DNA from: Chloroflexota bacterium
GTDB taxonomy: Bacteria; Chloroflexota; Anaerolineae; B4-G1
Assembly: GCA_030596915.1 (NCBI GenBank)
Contig: JAUVSX010000049.1
Location: forward strand, 1-11,397
Direction of reading: 5' to 3'
Length of the DNA: 11,397 bases
The notes under the pieces are model-generated. The model did not search any database, was not told where the DNA came from, and was given only the letters and a program-made list of their open reading frames with translations. The translations under genes and the position numbers were made by a program. This document shows, in pieces, positions 1 to 11,397 of the stretch; the first letter of the stretch is position 1, and each line of letters opens with the position of its first letter.

Positions 1-1347
1 GCCTGCATCCTGCTGTTCCTCGGCCTCAGATACTGGCCAGTCGCCGTGGTCCTGGCACTGCTGTGGATCGGTTGGTATGGGGTCTACGCGGCCAGCAACC
101 TGAGCTTTGGCGCTGTTACGGTAGTCATGTTATGTGGCGTCGTGCCGGCGTGCGTCCTTCTCGTCCTCGGTCTCATCTTGGTGTCGGGATACTTGTTTCC
201 GCCATCGTCTGACAACCTACGATGGAAGGCCCTTCGTGCTCTGCTAACCTTCACGATAGGCACTAACCATCCCTACTACGCCGTCGTCAGTCACGGCGAT
301 GAAGAGAACGAGCTGACGGAGCGCGCTGGCGGCCAGGCGTATCTCAGGGCGCCTGGCATCCCAGGAGGGAACCTGGCCGTCGGACCTGGTCTGGTGCTTA
401 CCGGCTGCGACCACGCCGTCGTCCTCAGCGACGGGCTGAGCCTCAAGGGTGTCCACGGCCCTGGTCTGGTGTTCACCGACACGGGGGACCGGCCCATCCA
501 GACGATCGATCTGCGGCCGCACTACCGTGACTTCGTCGTCAAGGGTGTGACCAAGGATGGCATCCGAGTTGCTGTCGGAGTGTTTGTCGTGTTCGAACTG
601 GACCGTGGCGAGGAGAGACCCACCTCAAGCCGTCCTTTCCCGTACCGGGAGCGGGCAGTGTTTGCCGCTCTGCAAGCGCAGCGCATGCAGCATCTGCCCG
701 ATGAAGTGAGGGAGCGCCGGTGGTACGATCTGCCTGAGCTGGGCGCCCGGCGTGCCCTCCAGGATATCATAGCCGGCAACCCGTTCGACAAGTTGTACCA
801 GGCGCATAGGAGTTCCGCGCCGGACAGACACGGGTCCAGCGGCCTGGAGGGGCATCGGGACCGCAGGATCGTGGGAGATTCGGCCACGTCCGATGAAGAC
901 GCGCGCTCAAGGGTCGTCGGAGAGTTTCGGGCGAGACTGACGGCTGATCTCGCACCCACGGGGATTCGGGTCGTCGACGCGGGCATCACCAATATCCTGC
1001 CCGTCGACGGCGAGGCTGTGCTCAGCCAGCGGATACAAAGCTGGCAGGCCGGTTGGGTGCAGCGGATCATGCTCCGGCAGGCGGAGGGCCAGGCAGAGCG
1101 GCTTAGGCTCGTGGCCGAGGCGCGGGCGCGAGCGCAGGAAGCGCTGATACTTGGCCTCGGCAAGCGTCTGCTGGACATGCACGAGCCTGGCTCGCCTGTC
1201 CCTGCCGAGGACGTTGCCAGATGGTTCCTGGAAGTGCTGCGAGAGATGGCATACCGTCCATCGGTCTTGCCTTTGCTGCCGCAGGAGACTACTGACACAA
1301 TGGAGCAAGTCCTGCGGAAGCTCAAGGACGCGCGTGACCACGCCTAG
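1..1347 (+). CDS. SPFH/band-7 (stomatin/flotillin/HflK-HflC-like) membrane protein, paralog 1; probably 5'-partial, since the frame is open back to nt 1 and the GTG at 46 is only the first in-window start
   Basis: The frame is open from 1 to the TAG at 1345-1347. The N-terminus is hydrophobic (LALLWIGWYGVYAASNLSFGAVTVVMLCGVVPACVLLVLGLILVSGYLF), giving 1-2 TM helices. The core 'GPGLVFTDTGDRPIQTIDLRPHYRDFVVKGVTKDGIRVAVGVFVVFEL' matches the SPFH/band-7 pattern (PGlhf.iP.id.v..vDLR.q.ldv..q.v.TkDnv.v.vdavv.y.v). The C-terminus is Ala/Glu/Arg/Gln-rich and coiled-coil-like (QAEGQAERLRLVAEARARAQEAL), as in flotillins. It is clearly paralogous to the C-terminal third of the next gene. No SD is visible before the GTG at 46. 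Confidence 0.8.
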   Translation, partial: ACILLFLGLRYWPVAVVLALLWIGWYGVYAASNLSFGAVTVVMLCGVVPACVLLVLGLILVSGYLFPPSSDNLRWKALRALLTFTIGTNHPYYAVVSHGDEENELTERAGGQAYLRAPGIPGGNLAVGPGLVLTGCDHAVVLSDGLSLKGVHGPGLVFTDTGDRPIQTIDLRPHYRDFVVKGVTKDGIRVAVGVFVVFELDRGEERPTSSRPFPYRERAVFAALQAQRMQHLPDEVRERRWYDLPELGARRALQDIIAGNPFDKLYQAHRSSAPDRHGSSGLEGHRDRRIVGDSATSDEDARSRVVGEFRARLTADLAPTGIRVVDAGITNILPVDGEAVLSQRIQSWQAGWVQRIMLRQAEGQAERLRLVAEARARAQEALILGLGKRLLDMHEPGSPVPAEDVARWFLEVLREMAYRPSVLPLLPQETTDTMEQVLRKLKDARDHA

Positions 1348-1417
1348 CATCCCCGGACAGGCTGCTCCTTGGCAGGTTGTCGCACCGAAGCGGCTGGGGT
1401 ACTCCGCTCGCCTTGCG

Positions 1418-4400
1418 ATGCTCGGGCTCGTCTTTATCCCTATCGTGCTACTCAGCGTGCTGGCGGAAGCTGGCATTCAAGGCGTGCCGGTTGCAGACAT
1501 CATGTCCAGGCTCACCCGCGGGTCCAGCAGGCTCAAGTCTGCTCGGATGGACGAAAGTGTCTGGCGGGCCTACCGAGTCGACAGTGAGGGTGATGTGGGA
1601 CGCTATGCATCGTCGGCTCTCGATACGGGAACCGGCGTGTTGCACGTAGGTTATCGCGACGAGACGAATGGCGACCTCAAGTACGCGCGGCGCGACGGAG
1701 AGTTGTGGCAGGTCCAGACCGTGGATGGCGGGGGGGATGTAGGCGCGTATGCCTCGCTGGCGCTCGATCCCAGCGGACTCCCGCGGATCGCCTACGTTGA
1801 CATCACGAACCAGCGGCTGAAGTATGCCTCTTGGGACGGAGCCGCGTGGCGCGTACAGACGGTGGTGGACACGGGCGCCCTCGGGCAGTATGCGTCGCTG
1901 GCTCTCGACGCGAGCGGCCGTCCGCACATCGCGTACTACGACGGCGTGAACGGTGACCTCGTGTACGTACGGCAGGACGGCGCGATGTGGCAATCGCAGA
2001 CCGTCGACAGCTCGGGAGATGTCGGTCAGTATGCCTCCCTGGCTCTGGACAGCGTCGGCAACCCCCACATCGCCTACTATGATGCCACCATGGGTGCGCT
2101 GAAGTACGGCGTCTGGGACGTGAACGGGTGGCAGCTTCTGATCGTGGACGGCGCCAATGATGACGTGGGGCTCTATGCGTCTCTAGTGCTCGACGACTCT
2201 GGAGTCGCCAGCGTCAGCTACTATGACAGGACGAACGGAGACCTGAAACTGATCTACGCGAGTGAGCAGGGTTGGACGGCTCAGGCAGTGGATAGCGCCG
2301 GCGATGTCGGTCCCTATTCGTCGATGGCCCTCGACTCTGGAGGCTATCCCTGCATCAGCTACTTTGACACCAGCAATGACCACTTGAAATACACCTGTTG
2401 GCGGGCGGGAGGCTGGCAGACCTGGACGGTGAATGGCTCCGAGGAGGTGGGCGTGTTCTCGTCCCTCGCTCTCGACCCTGTCAACGGATGCCCTCACATC
2501 AGCTACTACGATAGGATCGCGGGCGATCTTCGACACGCCACTCAGGCCAGAGGCGCTTGGGAGATCGATCTTGTAGATGGGGAGGGGGACGTAGGCTACT
2601 CCGCATCAGTTGGGCTGGCCCCTGAGAGCGGGCACGCGCGAATTAGCTACTATGACAGATATCCCCGGCACGACCTCAAGGTCGCTTCCTGGGACGGGAC
2701 AGGCTGGGCCATTGAGGTCGTTGACGCAGTCGGGGACGTGGGCAGCCACAGCTCGCTAGCGATCGGGAACTCTGGGCGTGCGCATATCGCGTACTCTGAC
2801 GGGACGATTGGCTCTCTCAGGGTCGCTATCTCAAGTGAGTCGGGGTGGCACAGGCAGACGGTAGCGGGCGGCCCCGGGATTGGAGAGCATGCCTCGTTGG
2901 CCCTCGATTGGCAGGAGCAGCCGCGCATCGCAGACTATGACAGCTCGAGCCGTGCGCTGATCTACGCGCGGTGGCACGGAGTGGCGTGGCAGATCGCGAC
3001 GGTGGACCAGAGCGCGGATGTGGGGCGCTATGCATCCCTCGCGCTCGATGGAGCAGGATTCCCGCGAATCGCATACTACGACGAAGCAAACGGCGAGCTG
3101 AAGTACGCGGACTGGCTTGGCACGAGCTGGCGGACCCAAGTTGTGGACAGCGCGGGCGATGTGGGGAAGTACGCAGCTCTGGCCCTTGATCGTAGCGGGA
3201 GCCCTCACGTAGCGTACCTCGACAACAAGGCGCTCGACCTGAAGTACGCTTTCTGGGATGGAGCAGAATGGCAGGTGCAGACGGTGGATGGCGGCGGCAG
3301 GGTGGGGCTGTACGCTTCCATCGCGCTCGACGGCCACGATAATCCGCGCATAGCATACTACGACGAGAGCCAAGCGACCCTGAAGCTGGCCACTTGGGAC
3401 GGCAGGGCCTGGTCCATCCAGACGGTGGACCGGGCAGGGGATGTTGGCAGACACGCGTCGCTGGCAGCGGACTCCCGAGGCCTGTTGCAGGTCGCATACT
3501 GCGAACATCTAGGGCCGGCCTGGCCGGGGGTCATTCGCAACGCTGGTCTTGCCGTTCTGGCGATGGTGCTTGTTCCGATACTAGCTTCGCGCTTCATGCG
3601 AGCGCTGTATGGGTTGGATAGCCTGAGCGATGCCTACGCCCATTTGCACAGGAGCGTGTTTGGGTTGAGCGGCGTGCGCCCGCTGTTGCTCGTACGCGAG
3701 GGGCGATTGGCCACGGACGGTGACGAGCCAGCGGCTCGCTTGGGGGGGCCGAGCAACCTGATCGCCTACAACGATAGTGCGGTGGTCGCGGAGCAGGGGG
3801 GGCGCTTGACGCGCGTGCTCGGCCCAGGTGTCCATCGGCTTAGGGCTTTCGAGAGGGTCTGGGTGAGCGTAGACTTGCGACCCCAGAGTCGACGGTTCCG
3901 CCTCCTGGCGATGACTGTTGAGGGCATCTGGGTAGCGTGCAAGGGCGAGGTGGCGTTCAGGATCCTAGGCGGCTCCAAGGCACCGACCGACAAGATGCCG
4001 TATCCCTACACGGATAAGGCTGTGGTCAGGGCGGCGATGGCTACTTGGGTCCGGGAGGCTGGCGACGATATTGAACCGGACTCCGAGCCGTGGAAGGTGA
4101 AATGGCCGGCCCGCATTGTCGGAGGGGAAAAGGGCGGCCCGTCCGCCTTGGACAGACCGTCCATCACCGAGGGCGCACGCAAATCCCCAGGCGTTGTCGG
4201 GCTCACGGAAAGGATGTTGCGCGACCTGATCAGCCGGTATCGGCTCGACGACCTTGTCGTGCCACAGCGACCGGGCTCACGTCAACCGCGTCAGGTGATC
4301 CGCGACGAGTTGACCAGGCGGCTTCGGCCCGCGGCGGCAAGTGTGGGCGTCGAGATCATCAGAGTCGAGCTGGACGAATTCGAGGTGGACGAGAGAGTCT

Positions 4401-4738
4401 CGGATCAATGGATCAAGGCGTGGCAGGCGGAATGGCAGCGGGATGCGATGTTTGTCCAGGCCGAGGGGGAGGCGCAGTTGGCGACCATCGACGCCGCCCA
4501 GACACGGGCTCAGGTTCAGATGATCCGCACGCTGGTGGAAAGGCTGCAACCGCTAGTCAAGGTACGGGAGCAGGCGGCGGTATACGAGGTTGCTGTCCGG
4601 CTAGTCGAGACTCTTCGCTGGATGTCGTTCGATCCGGTAACCCGAGCCTTCCTCCCTCCGGAAGCTCTCCAATCGCTGCAGGAACTGGAAGACAGTCTGT
4701 CAACCGGGCAGGCGCACGCCCAACCGGGTGCGAAATGA
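1418..4738 (+). CDS. Large membrane protein: N-terminal signal anchor, 14-blade beta-propeller-like repeat ectodomain, single TM helix, C-terminal SPFH/band-7 domain with coiled coil (paralog 2)
   Basis: The ORF-track frame 1151..4738 overlaps gene 1 with Cys/Arg-rich junk. The first canonical start after gene 1's stop is the ATG at 1418-1420, in frame (MLGLVFIPIVLLSVLAEAGIQG, a hydrophobic signal/anchor). No ATG/GTG/TTG occurs in frame between 1349 and 1418. Residues about 148-786 are 14 tandem copies of a 47-aa repeat. A TM helix (AGLAVLAMVLVPILASRF) lies at about nt 3540-3600. The downstream segment 'GPGVHRLRAFERVWVSVDLRPQSRRFRLLAMTVEGIWVACKGEVAFRILG' is an SPFH core that aligns with gene 1. 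The coiled-coil tail is 'QAEGEAQLATIDAAQTRAQVQMIRTLVERLQ'. The stop is the TGA at 4736-4738. Confidence 0.85.
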   Translation: MLGLVFIPIVLLSVLAEAGIQGVPVADIMSRLTRGSSRLKSARMDESVWRAYRVDSEGDVGRYASSALDTGTGVLHVGYRDETNGDLKYARRDGELWQVQTVDGGGDVGAYASLALDPSGLPRIAYVDITNQRLKYASWDGAAWRVQTVVDTGALGQYASLALDASGRPHIAYYDGVNGDLVYVRQDGAMWQSQTVDSSGDVGQYASLALDSVGNPHIAYYDATMGALKYGVWDVNGWQLLIVDGANDDVGLYASLVLDDSGVASVSYYDRTNGDLKLIYASEQGWTAQAVDSAGDVGPYSSMALDSGGYPCISYFDTSNDHLKYTCWRAGGWQTWTVNGSEEVGVFSSLALDPVNGCPHISYYDRIAGDLRHATQARGAWEIDLVDGEGDVGYSASVGLAPESGHARISYYDRYPRHDLKVASWDGTGWAIEVVDAVGDVGSHSSLAIGNSGRAHIAYSDGTIGSLRVAISSESGWHRQTVAGGPGIGEHASLALDWQEQPRIADYDSSSRALIYARWHGVAWQIATVDQSADVGRYASLALDGAGFPRIAYYDEANGELKYADWLGTSWRTQVVDSAGDVGKYAALALDRSGSPHVAYLDNKALDLKYAFWDGAEWQVQTVDGGGRVGLYASIALDGHDNPRIAYYDESQATLKLATWDGRAWSIQTVDRAGDVGRHASLAADSRGLLQVAYCEHLGPAWPGVIRNAGLAVLAMVLVPILASRFMRALYGLDSLSDAYAHLHRSVFGLSGVRPLLLVREGRLATDGDEPAARLGGPSNLIAYNDSAVVAEQGGRLTRVLGPGVHRLRAFERVWVSVDLRPQSRRFRLLAMTVEGIWVACKGEVAFRILGGSKAPTDKMPYPYTDKAVVRAAMATWVREAGDDIEPDSEPWKVKWPARIVGGEKGGPSALDRPSITEGARKSPGVVGLTERMLRDLISRYRLDDLVVPQRPGSRQPRQVIRDELTRRLRPAAASVGVEIIRVELDEFEVDERVSDQWIKAWQAEWQRDAMFVQAEGEAQLATIDAAQTRAQVQMIRTLVERLQPLVKVREQAAVYEVAVRLVETLRWMSFDPVTRAFLPPEALQSLQELEDSLSTGQAHAQPGAK
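1592..3507 (+). repeat. 14 tandem, diverged copies of a roughly 141-bp coding repeat (about 47 aa each) within CDS 1418..4738; predicted beta-propeller blades
   Basis: The protein-level consensus is D-V-G-x-Y-A-S-L-A-L-D-x-S-G-x-P-H-I-A-Y-Y-D-x-x-N-G-D-L-K-Y-A-x-W-D-G-x-x-W-x-x-Q-T-V-D-x-x-G. Copies 1 and 2 begin at nt 1592 and 1736 (GAT GTG GGA / GAT GTA GGC). The last copy ends '...RGLLQVAYCEH' at about 3507. Each copy has four short segments rich in beta-branched and aromatic residues (YASLALD / PHIAYYD / LKYAxWDG / WxxQTVD), as expected for a 4-stranded propeller blade. Fourteen copies fit two 7-bladed propellers. Confidence 0.8.
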
Positions 4739-4792: not shown

Positions 4793-5629
4793 CTACTTGA
4801 TGACGAATTGCGCAATACCCTCCAGGCGCGTCTCGATGAACACGCGGATCTCGTAGTTCCCCAGTTGCCACCCTGCTATCGGCTGACAGGTGACGGAGGT
4901 CTGGCCCTGCTCTCCCCAGACTCGGCCCTCCACAAGATCCCAAAGCCAGGTTCCGGAACACACCTCCAAGAGTTCACCCTCCTGATACCACGCGACAGTC
5001 ACGGGCACCCCCGCATCCATTCCTTCGTGCTGAAAGAACAGATATACGAGATGATGACCCGGAGGGAACTCCTTGCCAGGATCCACGGGGAGGCCGTCGG
5101 CATCCACCTGGGTGGCGAGCGCCAGCAACTGAATACGCGAGTCTTCGCGGGCCGGCAGCGCCGATGGGATGGGTGTCAGCGCCGTGTCTGGAGGGCGAAC
5201 GGTCGGCGTCGGCGTCGGTATTGGCGGAGGCGTCGCTGTGGGTCGTCGGGTCGGTGTTATCGTGGGTATCTGGGGCGGCGTCGCCGTTGGCCGTCGTGTA
5301 GCGGTGGGTGTGGTTATGGGTGTCTCAGATGGCACCGGCACGGGCGTAGGGGTCGGCGTGGACGTCAGGAGCGGCGTAACCGTAGGAGGGCTCGGAAGGA
5401 CGTAGGCCACGAATGAAGGAACGAGGAGCAAGACAATGGCCACAGACGGCAGCACCGCGGACACCAAGAGCCACCGTGTGGCGCGGCTGAACGCAGCACG
5501 GCGCACCGCGTAGTATGCAGCACGGCGCGCCTTCGTGAACTCGGCCAGTGCCAGCCCGATGGGGATCAGTGTGAGTGCGAACAGCAGGTACGCCAGCCAA
5601 CGCACGAATACTAGCACTTGAGCGCTCAA
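4793..5629 (-). CDS. Hypothetical membrane protein: two N-terminal TM helices, a Pro/Thr-rich low-complexity linker and a C-terminal domain of about 110 aa with unknown function
   Basis: A 278-aa ORF on the - strand. TM1 is VLVFVRWLAYLLFALTLIPIGLALA. A basic loop (KARRAAYYAVRRAAFSRATR) follows, then TM2 (LLVSAVLPSVAIVLLLVPSFVAYVL), then a PT-rich stretch (TPTPTPVPVPSETPITTPTATRRPTATPPQIPTITPTRRPTATPPPIPTPTPT), then a Trp-rich globular tail. The start is a TTG at 5627-5629, about 10 nt after a GAGG; an alternative GTG lies at 5615-5617. The stop is the TAG at 4793-4795. Third codon positions are G/C-biased in this frame. Confidence 0.6.
   Translation of the reverse strand: MSAQVLVFVRWLAYLLFALTLIPIGLALAEFTKARRAAYYAVRRAAFSRATRWLLVSAVLPSVAIVLLLVPSFVAYVLPSPPTVTPLLTSTPTPTPVPVPSETPITTPTATRRPTATPPQIPTITPTRRPTATPPPIPTPTPTVRPPDTALTPIPSALPAREDSRIQLLALATQVDADGLPVDPGKEFPPGHHLVYLFFQHEGMDAGVPVTVAWYQEGELLEVCSGTWLWDLVEGRVWGEQGQTSVTCQPIAGWQLGNYEIRVFIETRLEGIAQFVIK
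5222..5325 (-). repeat. Imperfect tandem duplication of about 48 bp (16 aa) inside the Pro/Thr-rich linker of CDS 4793..5629
   Basis: The encoded 'RRPTATPPQIPTITPT' is followed directly by 'RRPTATPPPIPTPTPT'. On the + strand this reads as GT-rich 'gcgtcgctgtgggtcgtcgg...' then 'gcgtcgccgttggccgtcg...'. It is a low-complexity PT linker typical of secreted and cell-surface proteins of high-GC Gram-positive and Chloroflexi bacteria. Confidence 0.5.
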
Positions 5630-5733: not shown

Positions 5734-7587
5734 CTACAGGTTGTCCTTGATTGCCTGGGCCACCTGGAGAGGCACGTGGGGCACGGCGGCAAGCTGCTCG
5801 ACGGTGGCTAGCCGAATCGCGTCAAGCGAACCGAAGGCCATGAGGAGCGCTTTGCGGCGCGCGGGACCGACGCCGGGGACGCTGTCGAGCTGCGATGCGA
5901 CTCCCGCTCTGCGCCGCCGTGTCCGATGGTGGGCGATCGCGAAACGGTGAGCCTCGTCTCGAATGCGTTGCAGAAGGAAGAGCCCCTGCGACTGCCGGGG
6001 CAAGATGACAGGGCCGGCACGCCCGGGCCGATAGACCTCTTCGTTGGCTTTGGCAAGGGCCGCGACAGGCACTCTGTCCCGCAATCCGAACGCCTCGAGC
6101 ACGTCGACGGCGACGCCCAGTTGACCTCTACCGCCATCCACGATGAGCAGGTCGGGCAGTATTGCCCAGTCTCTGGCGTTGCGGGTACCCAACACCTCCT
6201 CCGACGTTGCCAGCTTCCAGCGTCCAAAGCGTCGCTCGAGCACCTCGCGCATGCTCGCGTAGTCGTCGCTGCTCTCCACCTTGCGAACGACAAACTGCCT
6301 GTAGGCGGACTTGCGCGCCACAGCGTGCACAAATACGACCATACTACCGACGATGTCGGTGCCCTGGGTGGTCGAGATGTCGTAGCACTCCATCCGCACG
6401 GGAGGCTTGGGGAGATCCAGAGACTCCTTCAGTTGAGCGAGTGCCTGCTCGTGTTTGTGGGCATCCGCCTGCCACTGAGCGCGCAGAGCCGCCAGTGTCT
6501 CGGCAGCGTTCTCGGCAGCCATATCGACAAGGCCTCTCTTGTGTCCTCGCTTCGGCACACGAAGCGTGACCTTCGTGCCCCGTTTCCGCTTCAGCCACTG
6601 TTCGATGATCAGCGCTTCCTCAAGCTGCTCCTGCAGCAGCACCTCGGGCGGGACGTAGGCAGCCTCCTTGTAGAACTGCTTGATGAAAGCGGCGAGGACG
6701 CCGCGGGCATCCTCATTCTCGGCTCCCTCCAACACGAAGTACTCTCGCCCCAACAGCTTGCCGCCTCGGATGAAGAAGACCTCCACGCAGGCGTCACCAT
6801 CTTGGCGCGCAAATGCGACCACATCCTGATCAGCGCCGAGCGTCGAGACGACCTTCTGCTGCTCGACAACGATCCGGACCGCTCGGAGCTGGTCGCGCAG
6901 GATAGAGGCGCGTTCATAGTTCCATTCCTCGGCGGCGGCTGCCATTTGTGCCTCCAGGTTCGCGACTACTTCGTCGCTGCGGCCCTGCAGGAACTGAACC
7001 AGACCTCGGATCATCGTCCGGTACTCGTCGTTTGTGACGGCGCCGATGCAGGGACCCAGGCACAGCCTGATGTCGTAGTAGAGACACGGACGGCGATCCT
7101 GTCCGTCGATCTCGCGGTTGCACGTCAGGAATGGGAATGATCTGCGCAGCATATCGAGCGTCCGGTGAACGGCAGAGGCCGACGTGTAGGGACCGAAGTA
7201 ACGGCTACCATCCTGCTCCATGCGGCGCGTGATGAAGACCTTGGGAAACAGATCTGCCCAAGTGACCTTGATATACGGATAGCGCTTGTCGTCCTTGAGC
7301 CGCACATTGTAGCGGGGACGGTGCTGCTTGATGAGGTTGGCCTCAAGGATGAGGGCTTCCAGTTCCGAGTCGGTGACGATGAACTCCAGGTCCGCAACCT
7401 CGTCTACGATGGCGCGCACCTTGGGGTTCTCCCAGGCGGAGGCGTGGAAATAGGAGCGCACGCGGCTGCGCAGATCGACGGCCTTGCCGACGTAGATGAC
7501 GGTCGCGGCAGCATCGCGCATCAGGTACACCCCTGGCCTGCGCGGAAGCGTCTCCAGTTGCGTCTGGACGTGTTCCGAGAACTTCAC
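5734..7587 (-). CDS. uvrC: Excinuclease ABC subunit C (UvrC)
   Basis: The N-terminal GIY-YIG nuclease motif is 'PGVYLMRDAAATVIYVGKAVDLRSRVRSYF...ELEALILEANLIKQHRPRYNV'. There is a central UvrB-interacting region and an RNase-H-like endonuclease region. The C-terminal tandem helix-hairpin-helix is 'LDSVPGVGPARRKALLMAFGSLDAIRLATVEQLAAVP'. The ORF track starts at the TTG at 7617, which has no SD and abuts the upstream stop. The GTG at 7585-7587 is preceded by GGGAGA at 6-nt spacing. Starting there gives an N-terminus (MKFSEHVQTQLETLPRRPGVY) that aligns residue-for-residue with E. coli UvrC ([21 protein letters not shown]). The stop is the TAG at 5734-5736. Confidence 0.93.
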   Translation of the reverse strand: MKFSEHVQTQLETLPRRPGVYLMRDAAATVIYVGKAVDLRSRVRSYFHASAWENPKVRAIVDEVADLEFIVTDSELEALILEANLIKQHRPRYNVRLKDDKRYPYIKVTWADLFPKVFITRRMEQDGSRYFGPYTSASAVHRTLDMLRRSFPFLTCNREIDGQDRRPCLYYDIRLCLGPCIGAVTNDEYRTMIRGLVQFLQGRSDEVVANLEAQMAAAAEEWNYERASILRDQLRAVRIVVEQQKVVSTLGADQDVVAFARQDGDACVEVFFIRGGKLLGREYFVLEGAENEDARGVLAAFIKQFYKEAAYVPPEVLLQEQLEEALIIEQWLKRKRGTKVTLRVPKRGHKRGLVDMAAENAAETLAALRAQWQADAHKHEQALAQLKESLDLPKPPVRMECYDISTTQGTDIVGSMVVFVHAVARKSAYRQFVVRKVESSDDYASMREVLERRFGRWKLATSEEVLGTRNARDWAILPDLLIVDGGRGQLGVAVDVLEAFGLRDRVPVAALAKANEEVYRPGRAGPVILPRQSQGLFLLQRIRDEAHRFAIAHHRTRRRRAGVASQLDSVPGVGPARRKALLMAFGSLDAIRLATVEQLAAVPHVPLQVAQAIKDNL

Positions 7588-7618
7588 GGCCTGTCTCCCG
7601 GGAATCGCACCTGACAAG

Positions 7619-10024
7619 TCAGGGAGGGGTGACCCTCGCCTGCGTGAGAACGATGTGGTCTGCGAGCATCTGTCCGCCAGGAGGTATCACCGGCAAGTGA
7701 TGGATCTCCGCTTCGTCGAGCCAGTAGACCGCCACGCGTACGTCGTACACGCCGCTCGCTGCATCTGCAGAGATTGCCAGCCTCCTCGGGTCAACGACGA
7801 TCTCCCCGGGGTCCCAGGATGTCGTCGGGGCGGCGCCGTCTTGGGGCCAACTGTCGTGCTGCGCCGCCTTCGATTGTTGGGAGTCAACCAACTGCGCCGA
7901 AACTGTGTAGTCGACGGTCATCGGGCGCAGGGCCTTCCAGTATAGCGTTAGGGTAATCTCCTCGCCGGGAGCAGCGACTCGCCGGTCAAGATCGTATCCG
8001 ACGAGCGCCATGCGGTCCCCGAAGCTCACCCAGATCGGATTCGGGATCTGTCCGCCACGCGCCTGGATGTCGATTCGTCCGAAGCGGACGTGGTCGCCGA
8101 TGATTGCCCCGTCGCGATCCACGGCCGTAAGCCGCGCGCCGCTCTGGGGCTCAAACACACCAACCTCGATTCGGGCCTGGTCGGGGGTGTACGCGGTAGC
8201 GGGCAACTGCAGCACATAGCGATCCGCCCAGCGGAAACCTGGCTCCAGCGAGGTAGACGATAGCAACCCGAGGCCAGGGAAGGTGTCCCGCTGAGCCACA
8301 AGAAGGTCACCCTCTCCTAACAGGTGCACGAACACGGTGTGGTCCGCAGACGCGGGTGCGAGTGCCTCCCAGTACAAGGTGACGGGAAGCAGGCCGCCGG
8401 GCTGCACCGCCTGTGCCCCTACTTCGTACCCCAGCAGGCGCATCGTGGGTTGGACGTCGGCGCCGTCCTGAGTCGGCGCGCCGAAGTCGATGTGCAGGGG
8501 CTCGGGAATTGCCGCCACTCCCGCTGCGGTCAACGGATCGGGCAGCGCGTACGCCGGCGTGATCCAGGCGAACGGGGCGTACGTGGCAAGGGCGAACAGG
8601 AACAGGACGATCGACGCCAGGACCCATCGACCCCAAAGGCGGGGCACCCACGCCGTCAGCCCAAGTGCCAGCAGCATCGACCAGACCGGAATCGCTGAGA
8701 ATATCAGCCGGCCCTGAGAGGACCACGTGACCGACGCCCACCTAGACCAGGGAACCAAGACACCGAGGCCCCAGAGTAGGCAGAACAGGAAAGGCACGTA
8801 GCGGATTCTGCTCAGCCTGGGCGGAGGCACCGGGCGCCCAGGCCGACCGCGGAGAAGCCGTACCAACCATCGCACTAGCTCGACAGCCAGACCGGCCGCG
8901 CTGATGACGGCAAGCCAACTCAGAATCTGATAGGCCCAGTCGGGCATCGGGACATTCAGCCCGCCAAAGTTGCCCCAATAGCCGGCGGCAAAGCTGAAGC
9001 GTTCGCGCCACAATTGGGCCAGGTCGGCTGGCACGTCCCGCTGGCCGAGAATCTCGATGAAGACATTGAGGCCGGACGGATCGCCGTAAAGCAGCAGGTT
9101 TCGCAGGTACCACCACCCGGCCATCAAGAGCATCGGCAGCGACGCCGCAAGTCCGCCGATCACGAACTCTGCCCACGATCGCCGTCGCACCGCTCGGACG
9201 GTCACAACGAGGGCCGTGAGCAGGGTCAGTGCCAGCGAACTCGTCTTCGTGAGCGCCGCAAGGCCCAGCACAACGCCCAGCATCAGGTAACGGATGACAG
9301 GCACGTTTCTGGCGGCTGACCGCAGACCACTCCTATCACCGTCATCCAACGGAGCAGCGTGCGAGCTGTCATCGGGTCCGCCGGCGCGCCCTGCTGACGA
9401 GTCGCTTCTCAAGAGCCGGAGCAGCAGCAGCAGTGCCAGGCTGCTGAGCGGCACAACGAGATTGTCGTTGTTCACGGCGCCGGAGATGAACACGTACATC
9501 GGAGTGAAGGCGTGGATTCCGGCCGCGCCGAGGGCGAGACAAGGGCGATCTGGCGCCACCTCGCGCACGATTAGCCAGGTCAGGTAGACGGCGAAGGTGC
9601 TCGTCACGACGGAAAGCAGACGCACGAGATGAACTGCCAGAGTGGTGCCGCCCCACGGGAATGCCTCCTGCGTCTGGTTGTGGACGATCAGATTGATGTT
9701 GCCATCCGGGGTGGCCACTCCGATGTCGACGTGTGGATTGAGGCGCCGAACGTGATCTATGTCGGACGTGTCGATCCAGGCTGTCGCGAGCGCCCCGACA
9801 AAGTAGTACAGGGGGGGCTGGCTGCCCTCCTGCCGCCACGGCCCGACGTTGGCCGGGTCTTGGACCGGAAGAGCCCAGTGATCTGCGATGTGCTTGACCA
9901 TCGGATAGTGCCATAGCTCGTCGGATGCCTCGAAGGGCGGCACTGCGATGCTGTAAATGGTGGCCAACACAACGAACGCCACCAGAATCGCCATGAGAAG
10001 GCTGCGCTCGGTCCGTTTGCTCAC
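7619..10024 (-). CDS. ArnT/PMT-like GT-C fold glycosyltransferase (GT39/GT83-type, polyprenyl-phosphate-sugar dependent), with a duplicated C-terminal extracytoplasmic domain
   Basis: An 801-aa protein. It has about 12-14 predicted TM helices in the first roughly 500 aa. The first extracytoplasmic loop, 'PPFEASDELWHYPMVKHIADHWALP...PWRQEGSQPPLYYF', matches the ArnT/PMT signature (D-E/D-x-R-Y ... W-V-T-P ... YFEKPPLxYW). The C-terminal roughly 300 aa contains two copies of a module of about 130 aa (LLGYEV...LPVTLYWEAL...YTVFVHLLGEGD... and LVGYDLD...ITLTLYWKALRP...YTVSAQLVDSQQ...). The GTG start at 10022-10024 overlaps the upstream TGA (GTGA) and follows a GGAG at 8-nt spacing. An alternative ATG lies at 9992-9994. 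The stop is the TGA at 7619-7621. Confidence 0.75.
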   Translation of the reverse strand: MSKRTERSLLMAILVAFVVLATIYSIAVPPFEASDELWHYPMVKHIADHWALPVQDPANVGPWRQEGSQPPLYYFVGALATAWIDTSDIDHVRRLNPHVDIGVATPDGNINLIVHNQTQEAFPWGGTTLAVHLVRLLSVVTSTFAVYLTWLIVREVAPDRPCLALGAAGIHAFTPMYVFISGAVNNDNLVVPLSSLALLLLLRLLRSDSSAGRAGGPDDSSHAAPLDDGDRSGLRSAARNVPVIRYLMLGVVLGLAALTKTSSLALTLLTALVVTVRAVRRRSWAEFVIGGLAASLPMLLMAGWWYLRNLLLYGDPSGLNVFIEILGQRDVPADLAQLWRERFSFAAGYWGNFGGLNVPMPDWAYQILSWLAVISAAGLAVELVRWLVRLLRGRPGRPVPPPRLSRIRYVPFLFCLLWGLGVLVPWSRWASVTWSSQGRLIFSAIPVWSMLLALGLTAWVPRLWGRWVLASIVLFLFALATYAPFAWITPAYALPDPLTAAGVAAIPEPLHIDFGAPTQDGADVQPTMRLLGYEVGAQAVQPGGLLPVTLYWEALAPASADHTVFVHLLGEGDLLVAQRDTFPGLGLLSSTSLEPGFRWADRYVLQLPATAYTPDQARIEVGVFEPQSGARLTAVDRDGAIIGDHVRFGRIDIQARGGQIPNPIWVSFGDRMALVGYDLDRRVAAPGEEITLTLYWKALRPMTVDYTVSAQLVDSQQSKAAQHDSWPQDGAAPTTSWDPGEIVVDPRRLAISADAASGVYDVRVAVYWLDEAEIHHLPVIPPGGQMLADHIVLTQARVTPP

Positions 10025-11187
10025 GCGCCTAGCTCCGCGAAGAACTCCACCGTCCGCGCCGCGATTCGATCCCAGGTGAACTCCTCCGCCAGGCTCTTCG
10101 CGCCCACTGCCAGACGTTCCCGCAATCCTTCGTCCGCCGCCAGCTCCGTGACTGCGTGGGCCAGCGCGGGCACATCCTGAGCCTGAACGAGTAGCGCGTT
10201 CTCGTGATCGCGGAGATCAGGCGTTTCGATGGTGGGCCACGTGGTCACGATGGGTCGTCCGTGCGCCAGGCAGGCGTGCAGACTCCCGTGGCGGAGGGAT
10301 ACGCCATCGCGATAGGGCAGCACACTGACGTCCGTGGCGATCAAGCTCGCCGAGACTTCCTCGGGCGAAACGAATCCGGTGCGATGCACGCGGTGCAGGA
10401 CGCCCCGCCGCTCGATCAGCGCGTCGACGCGGCGCGCATACTCGACGTTGGTCGGATCGGAGGTGCCCGCGCGTCCGCCGATCAGCAGAAGGTGGGCAGG
10501 GAGCCCCCGCTCAACGAGCAGCGCCAGCGTCTCGATCAGGTCTTCCCCGCCCTTGCGCTCGTTGAGGAAGCCGAACTATCCAAGTACCAGGTCGCCCGGG
10601 CCGATGCCCCACCTGGCCCGCGTGCTGTGTCTGTCGTAGCTCGGGGGGAGGCGCGGCGCGATGTTGCTGCCAATCGGAATACGGACGAGTGGGGTGGCCA
10701 GATGGCAACCTGCAAGCCGTGCGTGGTCCTCGCGGTTAGTCAATATCGCGCCGTCAGACCTGCGCGCAAGGGCGAGTACTGCTTGCCAGCGCAGCGGGCC
10801 CGCCTTTGGGAAGAGGTAAGGAACCCGAAGATCGTGGAATGTGACGACAATCGGAGGTTTCCCCTGCCCAGTGGACCCCGGAGGCAGCAGGTTGATACCC
10901 GGGTGCATGCCGTAGGCTGCCGTCTGGTATTGGATGTCAAACACATCAAGCTGAAGCGGTCCGGCCACCTGCCCGAGCGAGTGCCAGATGCGCCAGCCCC
11001 AGTTGGACACGACGCGATGAACCCTCAGGGGGTACAATACTTTCTCCTGACGGGTGGGCGGCCTCTCGCCGGTGATGATGTGCACATCGTGGCCGGCCGC
11101 AGCCAAGGCCCGGCCAAGCGCGCGGGTGTAGTCTCCGACGCCGCCCTGATCAGGTGGGTACTCGCCTGTGATCAATCCAATCCGCAT
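10021..11187 (-). pseudogene. GT4-family (GT-B fold) glycosyltransferase interrupted by one in-frame TAG at 10576-10578; a nonsense mutation, a sequencing error or readthrough. The N-terminal fragment is 11187..10576 and the C-terminal fragment, in the same frame, runs from 10575 to the TGA at 10021-10023
   Basis: The N-terminus 'MRIGLITGEYPPDQGGVGDYTRALGRALAAAGHDVHIITG' is a classic GT4 N-terminal domain. After '...GPGDLVLG' comes a TAG. The same frame then continues with no further stop: 'FGFLNERKGGEDLIETLALLVERGLPAHLLLIGGRAGTSDPTNVEYARRVDALIERRGVLHRVHRTGFVSPEEVSASLIATDVSVLPYRDGVSLRHGSLHACLAHGRPIVTT...FAELGA*'. This is the Glycos_transf_1 C-terminal domain (xFGFLxxxKG motif; E..G.P.V.T). 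The ORF-track entries 10576..11298 and 10021..10389 are in one frame (both ≡ 0 mod 3). The true start is the ATG at 11185-11187, preceded by AGGAA. The N-terminal extension back to 11298 overlaps the upstream gene and is rejected. Confidence 0.65.
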
Positions 11188-11397
11188 GTCGGCAGGTTTC
11201 CTACGATATGCGCGCCTGGCCTCAGCCCGGTCCCGAGAACCTGGGAGTAAGCCGCCAGCCGCTGTGCCCGCAGATCTCTCCGGTGGCCAACCAGCCACTT
11301 GCTCCCCTCAATCACGATCTGCCAGGCGTCGTTTCCCAGCAGGAAGAAGCGCAGCGTTTCCCCCGCCAGCTTGCCGTGGTGCTTCTGGAAGTAGCGC
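11172..11397 (-). CDS. 3' end of an unknown protein-coding gene; its 5' end lies beyond the window
   Basis: A minus-strand frame is open from the window edge to the TGA at 11172-11174. It translates as '...RYFQKHHGKLAGETLRFFLLGNDAWQIVIEGSKWLVGHRRDLRAQRLAAYSQVLGTGLRPGAHIVGNLPTCGLD*'. About 85% of third codon positions are G/C, as in the confirmed genes. It is absent from the ORF track only because there is no start codon inside the window. Its last 16 nt overlap the GT4 start codon. Confidence 0.5.
   Translation of the reverse strand, partial: RYFQKHHGKLAGETLRFFLLGNDAWQIVIEGSKWLVGHRRDLRAQRLAAYSQVLGTGLRPGAHIVGNLPTCGLD

Follow-up and report, generated by a model that had tools for sequence, protein, structure and literature searches.

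Seven-bladed propellers of the sialidase-type family BNR_4 include the PL25 ulvan lyase (5UAM), FoRham1 of PL42 (7ESK) and a GH145 member (5MUM). The PLL/PHL lectins of Photorhabdus and the lectins BP39L and CV39L are single propellers of ~350 aa, and the PLL/PHL-type lectins have Trp-rich sugar sites between their blades. Two consecutive propellers in one chain are found in GH74 xyloglucanase, in the YWTD pairs of LRP5/6, in DDB1 and in 14-repeat proteins of the Aip1 type, which are built from other blade families (six-bladed YWTD; WD40). HflK/HflC, prohibitin-1/2, stomatin and QmcA belong to a quite different group of proteins, in which a Band_7 domain precedes a long helix. SPFH proteins with a solved structure assemble into rings or cages, several of them as paralog pairs, and hflK and hflC are adjacent paralogous genes. 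The SPFH subfamilies SPFH3a/b and SPFH11a/b likewise have their paralog pair in one operon (PMC2636767).

The locus described here brings these two groups together. The window, a stretch of 11,397 nucleotides from a Chloroflexota bacterium, contains two adjacent genes, SPFH-A and SPFH-B, and the product of the second carries an array of 47-residue repeats predicted to fold into two tandem propellers between its two membrane helices. The propeller fold itself is ordinary; its placement within an SPFH protein is the one unusual feature. We know of no SPFH protein with an extracellular propeller, and a literature search on SPFH proteins with a propeller returned nothing relevant. The features are summarized in Table 1, where residues are counted from ATG 1418, as they are in the text unless stated otherwise.

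Table 1. Features of the SPFH-A/SPFH-B locus (nucleotide positions in the window)
Feature	Position	Residues	Strand	Basis and remarks
SPFH-A, upstream paralog	46..1347		+	Pfam Band_7; 433 aa, membrane hairpin and SPFH
SPFH-B, whole gene	1334..4738		+	ORF; 1134 aa from GTG 1334, 1106 aa from ATG 1418
Membrane helix 1 (predicted)	1418..1495	1-26	+	Kyte-Doolittle; TM1 of P0121 and P0125 by eye
Strand-4-like segment VWRAYRVD (putative)	1556..1579	47-54	+	'W.IE.VD' counterpart in 14-copy relatives
First seven-bladed propeller (predicted), copies 1-7	1589..2584	58-389	+	motif, copy counts, AF2, Foldseek
Second seven-bladed propeller (predicted), copies 8-13 and half copy 14	2585..3508	390-697	+	motif, AF2, Foldseek, alignment of halves
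Membrane helix 2 (predicted)	3518..3610	701-731	+	Kyte-Doolittle; AF2 helix 703-731; ortholog TM2
SPFH/Band_7 domain and long C-terminal helix	3686..4738	~757-1106	+	Pfam, profile against PDB, AF2

The open reading frame of SPFH-B extends from TTG 1151 to the stop at 4738 on the forward strand, and its first ATG is at 1418. No in-frame ATG, GTG or TTG lies between 1348 and 1418. The sequence AAGGA stands 5 nt before GTG 1334, and this start overlaps the SPFH-A stop, an overlap shared by the orthologous pair of a related locus, L002. Similarity with orthologs also extends upstream of M1418 ('GYSARLA' against 'GYGLRVA'). On these sequence features GTG 1334 is a likelier start than ATG 1418.

The repeat copies were located by anchoring on the motif [VIL]G.[YFSH][AS][SA], which places the array at nucleotides 1589..3508 of the forward strand, residues 58-697. 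Copies 1-7 start at residues 58, 106, 153, 200, 248, 295 and 342, and copies 8-14 at residues 390, 439, 486, 533, 580, 627 and 674. The array comprises 13 complete copies of 47-49 aa each and a 24-aa half copy, GDVGRHASLAADSRGLLQVAYCEH, which leads directly into a membrane helix. The consensus is GDVGxYASLALDxxGxPxIAYYDxxxGxLKYAxWDGxxWxxQTVDxx. Its conserved residues are D12, Y21 and D23, together with an NG in the B-C loop and the GDVG of the D-A loop. Pairwise protein identity between copies is 45% on average (range 28-62%), mean DNA identity is 59%, and the first and second halves of the array align at E=3e-69 with 44-47% identity. The most diverged copies are 7-10, at the junction between the two rings. 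The similarity of the repeats is far beyond chance. Tandem Repeats Finder reports no DNA-level tandem repeat in the array, so recent slippage is rejected, and the repeats are better described as the product of old divergence. The original prediction from this DNA had placed the 47-aa repeat correctly, with 'DVG' starts at 1592 and 1736 that are exact, and had given a consensus essentially the same as the one computed from the copies. Its view of diverged DNA copies and an old amplification also agrees with the identities above. Its 14 tandem copies are found as 14 starts, of which the last opens the half copy, and its regular spacing is real, with the full copies measuring 47-49 rather than 46-49 aa. 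The residue range 148-790 that it gave for the repeats has to be replaced by 58-697 in the product starting at 1418; it fits numbering from TTG 1151.

An AF2 model of residues 44-700, computed from an alignment of the repeat region with 38 relatives, is all-beta with a mean pLDDT of 92.8 and a pTM of 0.78. DSSP assigns 54 strands to this model, 13 × 4 + 2, with four antiparallel strands for every full copy and two strands for the half copy; the original prediction had likewise expected four strands per copy. Superposition on closed seven-bladed propellers covers about 305-319 residues at 2.5-3.2 Å, and together with the copy-number arithmetic given below these statistics support a closed ring of seven blades. 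The last blade shows no clear strand 3, a point against this picture. Taken together, the model and the copy numbers support two tandem seven-bladed propellers with four-stranded blades, the arrangement originally proposed as probable. A single 14-bladed ring and a beta-solenoid, the latter raised beforehand as a fold that structure prediction might reveal, are both rejected, on the grounds of the superposition and of the copy numbers. One group of rival explanations takes the array as one large ring or some other beta fold, or as a recent expansion or an assembly artefact; in its favor, AF2 may place too much confidence in repeats, and the N-terminal closing strand is missing from the model. 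Against it stand the superposition on closed seven-bladed propellers, the copy numbers of the relatives, which are multiples of seven, the low DNA identity between copies, the Tandem Repeats Finder result and the presence of the same array in thousands of independent relatives. This group of explanations is largely refuted and we consider it highly improbable.

Foldseek searches against the PDB match the model to the PLL/PHL seven-bladed lectins, with TM-scores of 0.73-0.79 (normalized on the lectin) over ~360 columns. Structural similarity of the AF2 model to PLL-type lectins is thus high by both Foldseek and superposition, whereas identity to PLL/PHL and BP39L/CV39L is 12-17%, there is no PDB match to them at the sequence level, and these lectins are single propellers where the array would form a double one. 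The double-propeller proteins LRP2/LRP6, GH74 and DDB1 match over the whole length. All 657 residues are aligned to such tandem propellers at E=1e-11 to 1e-15, with a poor global TM-score of 0.3-0.4, which means that the geometry between the two propellers differs or is undefined. The structural neighbors of the model do not single out one superfamily, with similar scores for CylK, lectins, a lyase, hydrazine synthase, integrins and WD40 proteins; this, too, counts against the explanation proposed below.

The number of blades per unit is best seen in the relatives. Copies were counted in 237 relatives with a profile of the 13 full copies; 118 have 14 copies, 27 have 21 and 31 have 13, and the distribution peaks at 14, 21 and 7. 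Contiguous runs of copies peak at 7 (145) and 14 (86). The unit is therefore seven blades. Most relatives with 14 copies have a final repeat that breaks off after strand 3, at profile positions 32-37, and a 'W.IE.VD' segment resembling strand 4 immediately ahead of repeat 1. This is the pattern of the usual 1+3 velcro permutation. Strand 4 is always joined to the next strand 1 by a short linker, and the simplest arrangement is therefore D-(ABCD)6-ABC per ring. Each ring probably has this form, with arrays of 14 or 21 copies being concatenations of the same unit. The segment VWRAYRVD of the window protein is a candidate for the 'velcro' strand that would close a propeller; it is not a strand in the AF2 model, and the full-length model has pLDDT values under 50 as far as residue 47.

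Assignment of the blade to a family is less direct. A Pfam scan of the protein at E<=1 finds no WD40, Kelch, NHL, YVTN, PQQ, TolB/PD40, LVIVD or FG-GAP, and a scan of the repeat region alone at E<=0.01 finds none of them either. Kelch matches occur in some of the relatives (Pfam). Two other models reach their cut-offs with the repeat region. BNR_4 (PF15892) scores 28.5 bits with the full protein and 34.1 bits with the repeat region (cut-off 27.3), and DUF7253 (PF23911) 24.1 and 30 bits, respectively (cut-off 25.1). Among the 39 members of the alignment, the repeat region and its 38 relatives, BNR_4 matches 27 (best E=2e-27) and DUF7253 matches 16. No single stretch of the 272-position BNR_4 model is significant in the window protein or in ten relatives that were checked. 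The best stretch is one repeat on positions ~215-270 in the window protein and nine of the ten relatives, while the remaining relative, P0048, aligns to positions 22-75. The DUF7253 match in the window protein is confined to positions 64-88 of 110; ~20-25 positions of that model are matched, with no stretch significant by itself, and the literature search on DUF7253 returned nothing relevant. The scores of both models are sums of weak single-blade matches to one blade-length stretch, and BNR_4 is therefore a weak link at the level of the blade and not a confident assignment. That summed repeat scores can mislead is seen in searches against PDB sequences with the region, the 39-sequence profile and the single-repeat profile, which return nothing but artefacts of chance or periodicity, namely gasdermin (E=0.84) and, with the family profile, AI-designed TIM barrels (E=1e-7). 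The TIM barrels have a beta/alpha fold, so these matches are plainly false and are rejected as homologs. None of these PDB searches matches the solved BNR_4 members. An NCBIfam scan of the propeller protein gives nothing meaningful and PADLOC gives nothing.

The Asp-box provides a further comparison with BNR proteins, where it sits in the hairpin between strands 3 and 4. In place of S-x-D-x-G-x-T-W the consensus here reads A-x-W-D-G-x-x-W; G and W alone stand at the canonical spacing, and G..W alone is conserved across the relatives. The short Pfam BNR motif is not reported in the protein at E<=1. The SxDxGxTW motif is thus degenerate in the repeat. The repeat also differs from BNR_4 in that its repeated, weak matches fall on just one blade-length stretch of the model, in its near-uniform rather than individually specialized blades, and in its tandem units of 7, 14 or 21 blades. 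Blade-level kinship with sialidase-type propellers is plausible from the sequence, and no curated model describes the repeat. The absence of WD40, Kelch, NHL, YVTN, PQQ, TolB-like and LVIVD repeats had been foreseen. The accompanying suggestion of an undescribed family is right in that the family is uncurated and no solved structure is detected by sequence, but the repeat is very common and already in public databases, and BNR_4 and DUF7253 do pass their cut-offs, if by summed weak matches. The propellers could be a carbohydrate-active enzyme of the BNR_4/sialidase type (similar to the PL25 ulvan lyase, the PL42 rhamnose-glucuronate lyase or GH145) that would cut an envelope or environmental polysaccharide at the surface of the cell. 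The one family-level sequence link is to a family with enzymes, which counts against the explanation proposed below. We regard an enzyme as quite unlikely.

The abundance of the blade is considerable. A single-repeat profile made from the 13 copies was searched against a library of 1.84 billion entries whose representatives are clusters at 50% identity. It matches 27,731 at E<=1e-3, 19,389 at 1e-10 and 8,940 at 1e-30, so that the single-repeat search proposed earlier for other users of the blade is amply rewarded. Named sources of the relatives include Chloroflexota, Bacillota, Nitrospirae, Deltaproteobacteria and Thermoplasmata. Secreted 14-blade proteins of the P0001 kind are 43% identical. 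Among the relatives the blade is fused to PKD, Ig-like, FlgD-Ig, CarboxypepD_reg and SLH domains and also to dockerin, PGF-pre-PGF, the Por secretion tail and S8 protease. The relatives are read as secreted or surface proteins because the fused domains are hallmarks of such proteins, and the family as a whole appears to reside mostly in proteins of this kind. A screen for fibrillar adhesins listed a propeller cluster of 'ambiguous function' that overlaps BNR_4 (PMC9210967) and that may be the same family. 'Cluster 16', which Monzon et al. 2022 put forward as a candidate adhesive domain (PMC9210967), may likewise correspond to the repeat family.

The remainder of SPFH-B identifies the host protein. 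Band_7 scores 45.5 bits in the propeller protein against a Pfam cut-off of 23.6. A profile of the SPFH module matches stomatin PH1511 best among PDB entries (9.5e-9), and also stomatin, prohibitin, QmcA and HflK. Like HflK/HflC, prohibitin-1/2, stomatin and QmcA, SPFH-B has a long helix after Band_7, for which the AF2 secondary structure shows a helix at 992-1048. SPFH-B is nevertheless very distant from the solved SPFH proteins, and it differs from known ones in its two-helix hairpin with a predicted cytoplasmic SPFH domain and in belonging to a small family seen in Chloroflexota. The SPFH module has 15 word-sharing relatives, and those with a source name are Chloroflexota or Anaerolineales. 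Ten close orthologs of the module are 35-50% identical, 388-513 aa long, and consist of TM1, a loop of ~20 residues, TM2 and the SPFH domain. Membrane helix 1 of the window protein has a predicted helix at 6-17 with low pLDDT; membrane helix 2 aligns with ortholog TM2 'VRNxxxAVLxLILVPLLASRF'. Both flanks of the array match the orthologs by eye, LLSVLAEAGIQG..VADIMSRL on the N-terminal side and GPAWPGVIRNAGLAVLAMVLVPILASRF on the C-terminal side, and the TM2 flank was also aligned with the orthologs. By this comparison of sequences, residues ~33-698, which hold the double propeller, form an insertion of ~665 residues in the short outer loop between the SPFH-B membrane helices. The SPFH context of the repeats does not appear in the original prediction.

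The insertion is rare. Related loci were scanned in metagenomes with a narrow alignment, and the repeat is absent from 43/43 of them; no large gap interrupts the match of their SPFH-B genes to the profile. About 45 SPFH relatives have no insertion, and the sole relative with the same architecture is P0029, a truncated ortholog with 48% identity. No relative turned up when reference genomes were scanned with the SPFH module, and exact-sequence look-ups with the propeller protein and with UvrC matched no public contig. The gene pair is conserved. SPFH-A shares 28% identity (E=5e-25) with the SPFH module of the propeller protein and 47% with the gene that precedes the ortholog in another related locus, L001. 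Nearly all of the 43 related loci carry the pair, counted where the flanking sequence suffices. The sequences thus present SPFH-A and SPFH-B as a conserved adjacent paralog pair in Chloroflexota, much as hflK and hflC are adjacent; unlike known SPFH systems, the pair has no NfeD or FtsH gene next to it. UvrC and PMT_2 genes lie downstream both in the window and in L002. A TPR gene follows SPFH-B in relatives and is absent from the window.

We propose, with a probability of about 60%, that an outward-facing double propeller serves as a binding module tethered to a cytoplasmic SPFH scaffold. The repeat and its predicted fold, the seven-blade unit, the site of insertion, the pairing of paralogs and the assignment to SPFH all come from tool results; we infer the velcro arrangement, the topology, the hetero-oligomer, and both the binding and the nature of a ligand. 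In this proposal the blade is one member of a very large family, as yet uncurated, of extracytoplasmic propellers that prokaryotes build in units of seven, and the double propeller, with a short linker, sits in the ~20-residue outer loop between the SPFH-B membrane helices. By direct reading, many Arg/His residues follow TM2, and Lys/Arg residues precede TM1 if the start is GTG 1334, as the positive-inside rule would lead one to expect. The basic residues after TM2 and the extracytoplasmic relatives of the repeat indicate that the propellers face outward and the SPFH domain lies in the cytoplasm, so that the likely topology has the N-terminus inside and the propellers outside the membrane. Since solved SPFH proteins build rings or cages, several as paralog pairs, SPFH-A and SPFH-B would probably build one too, at the inner side of the membrane; the models for this are HflK/HflC, prohibitin-1/2 and stomatin. 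Each SPFH-B in the ring would then display one double propeller outside. The propellers would offer multivalent binding outside the cell, most likely to a polysaccharide of the cell envelope or the environment, and contact with the ligand would tether the SPFH scaffold or position it relative to the ligand. Multivalent binding is the most likely function, and polysaccharide the probable ligand, because of the regular blades and the lectin-like structural neighbors.

The propellers might instead be a platform for protein binding or sensing, as in TolB, integrin alpha or WD40-like proteins, with an S-layer or envelope protein or a partner peptide as ligand. The window has no partner gene bearing a recognizable propeller-binding motif, and the TPR gene that follows SPFH-B in relatives is missing here, both of which weigh against a protein ligand. 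We consider such a platform rather unlikely, although nothing here distinguishes it from glycan binding. An extracellular, probably glycan-binding module on a cytoplasmic SPFH scaffold is what we infer as most likely.

The two halves of the broadest interpretation, that the blade is a major lectin-like surface superfamily and that it is grafted here onto a hetero-oligomeric SPFH ring, are unlikely to hold together. If they did, the superfamily would comprise at least 27,000 clusters in bacteria and archaea, always in seven-blade units, with no solved structure and no curated model. The protein would then be a transmembrane device in which a crown of extracellular double propellers physically couples a ligand from the envelope or the environment to a cytoplasmic SPFH microdomain scaffold; to our knowledge, coupling of an outside ligand to the scaffold by such means is undescribed for SPFH proteins. 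The fusion itself is seen in two sequences only, which limits its general importance, and its general significance may be little. The blade family is a different matter, as ~28,000 clusters at 50% identity in bacteria and archaea lack a dedicated model; the family is reached only through summed weak BNR_4/DUF7253 matches, and sequence searches detect no solved structure. With a proper repeat model, surface proteins now called 'hypothetical' would gain an annotation in their thousands. The double propeller in the SPFH hairpin loop would be the first hint of how a prokaryotic SPFH scaffold might be linked to something outside the cell, and the paired SPFH-A/B genes would be a tractable system in which to test that connection.

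The propeller gene (SPFH-B) probably starts at GTG 1334 rather than at ATG 1418, judging from the sequence. AAGGA is located 5 nt upstream of this GTG, and a start here gives a 14-nt overlap with the stop of the upstream gene. Within positions 1321..1420, no in-frame start codon is found between 1348 and 1418. The similarity to orthologs extends upstream past the Met encoded at 1418, and the longer form places extra Lys/Arg residues ahead of the first membrane helix (TM1).

The gene order of window 46..4738 was compared with that of three related loci (L001, L002 and L004). The pair formed by SPFH-B and its upstream paralog SPFH-A is conserved. In the relatives the next gene encodes a TPR protein, while the window lacks it and has a minus-strand gene directly after SPFH-B instead. 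This gene encodes a 278-aa protein for which no family match is found; a similar position is occupied by 262-aa and 242-aa genes in L002 and L004. The downstream UvrC and PMT_2 genes are shared with L002. The uvrC ORF is separated from that of the 801-aa membrane protein by one base, and the weak domain matches of the latter make it a putative glycosyltransferase. The GT4-type glycosyltransferase gene is otherwise one reading frame, broken by a single in-frame TAG (10576..10578, minus strand; ...DLVLG*FGFLNERKGG...). This stop may be a true nonsense mutation, which would make the gene a pseudogene, or may stem from an error in sequencing.

Genes on the minus strand downstream of the SPFH pair
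Feature	Position	Strand	Description
278-aa protein	4793..5629	-	Hydrophobic N-terminal segments, long Pro/Thr-rich linker, ~100-aa C-terminal domain
uvrC	5734..7617	-	Directly downstream of 801-aa membrane protein gene
Multi-pass membrane protein, 801 aa	7619..10024	-	PMT_2 and DUF2142 matches, weak
GT4-type glycosyltransferase	10021..11298	-	Glyco_transf_4, N-terminal half; Glyco_trans_1_4, C-terminal half

In PDB searches with the repeat-family alignments A1 and A2, the profiles also match AI-designed TIM barrels with formal significance (E=1e-7). These matches come from periodic 'G..IAY....E.LK.A' similarity, and we reject a TIM-barrel relationship as a clear false positive. This case exposes the danger in summing repeat-versus-repeat scores.

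P0130, which belongs to the same small family as the SPFH module of SPFH-B, shows bacterial Ig-like (Big_1/invasin D3) matches at its C-terminus; this family has thus gained extra domains more than once.
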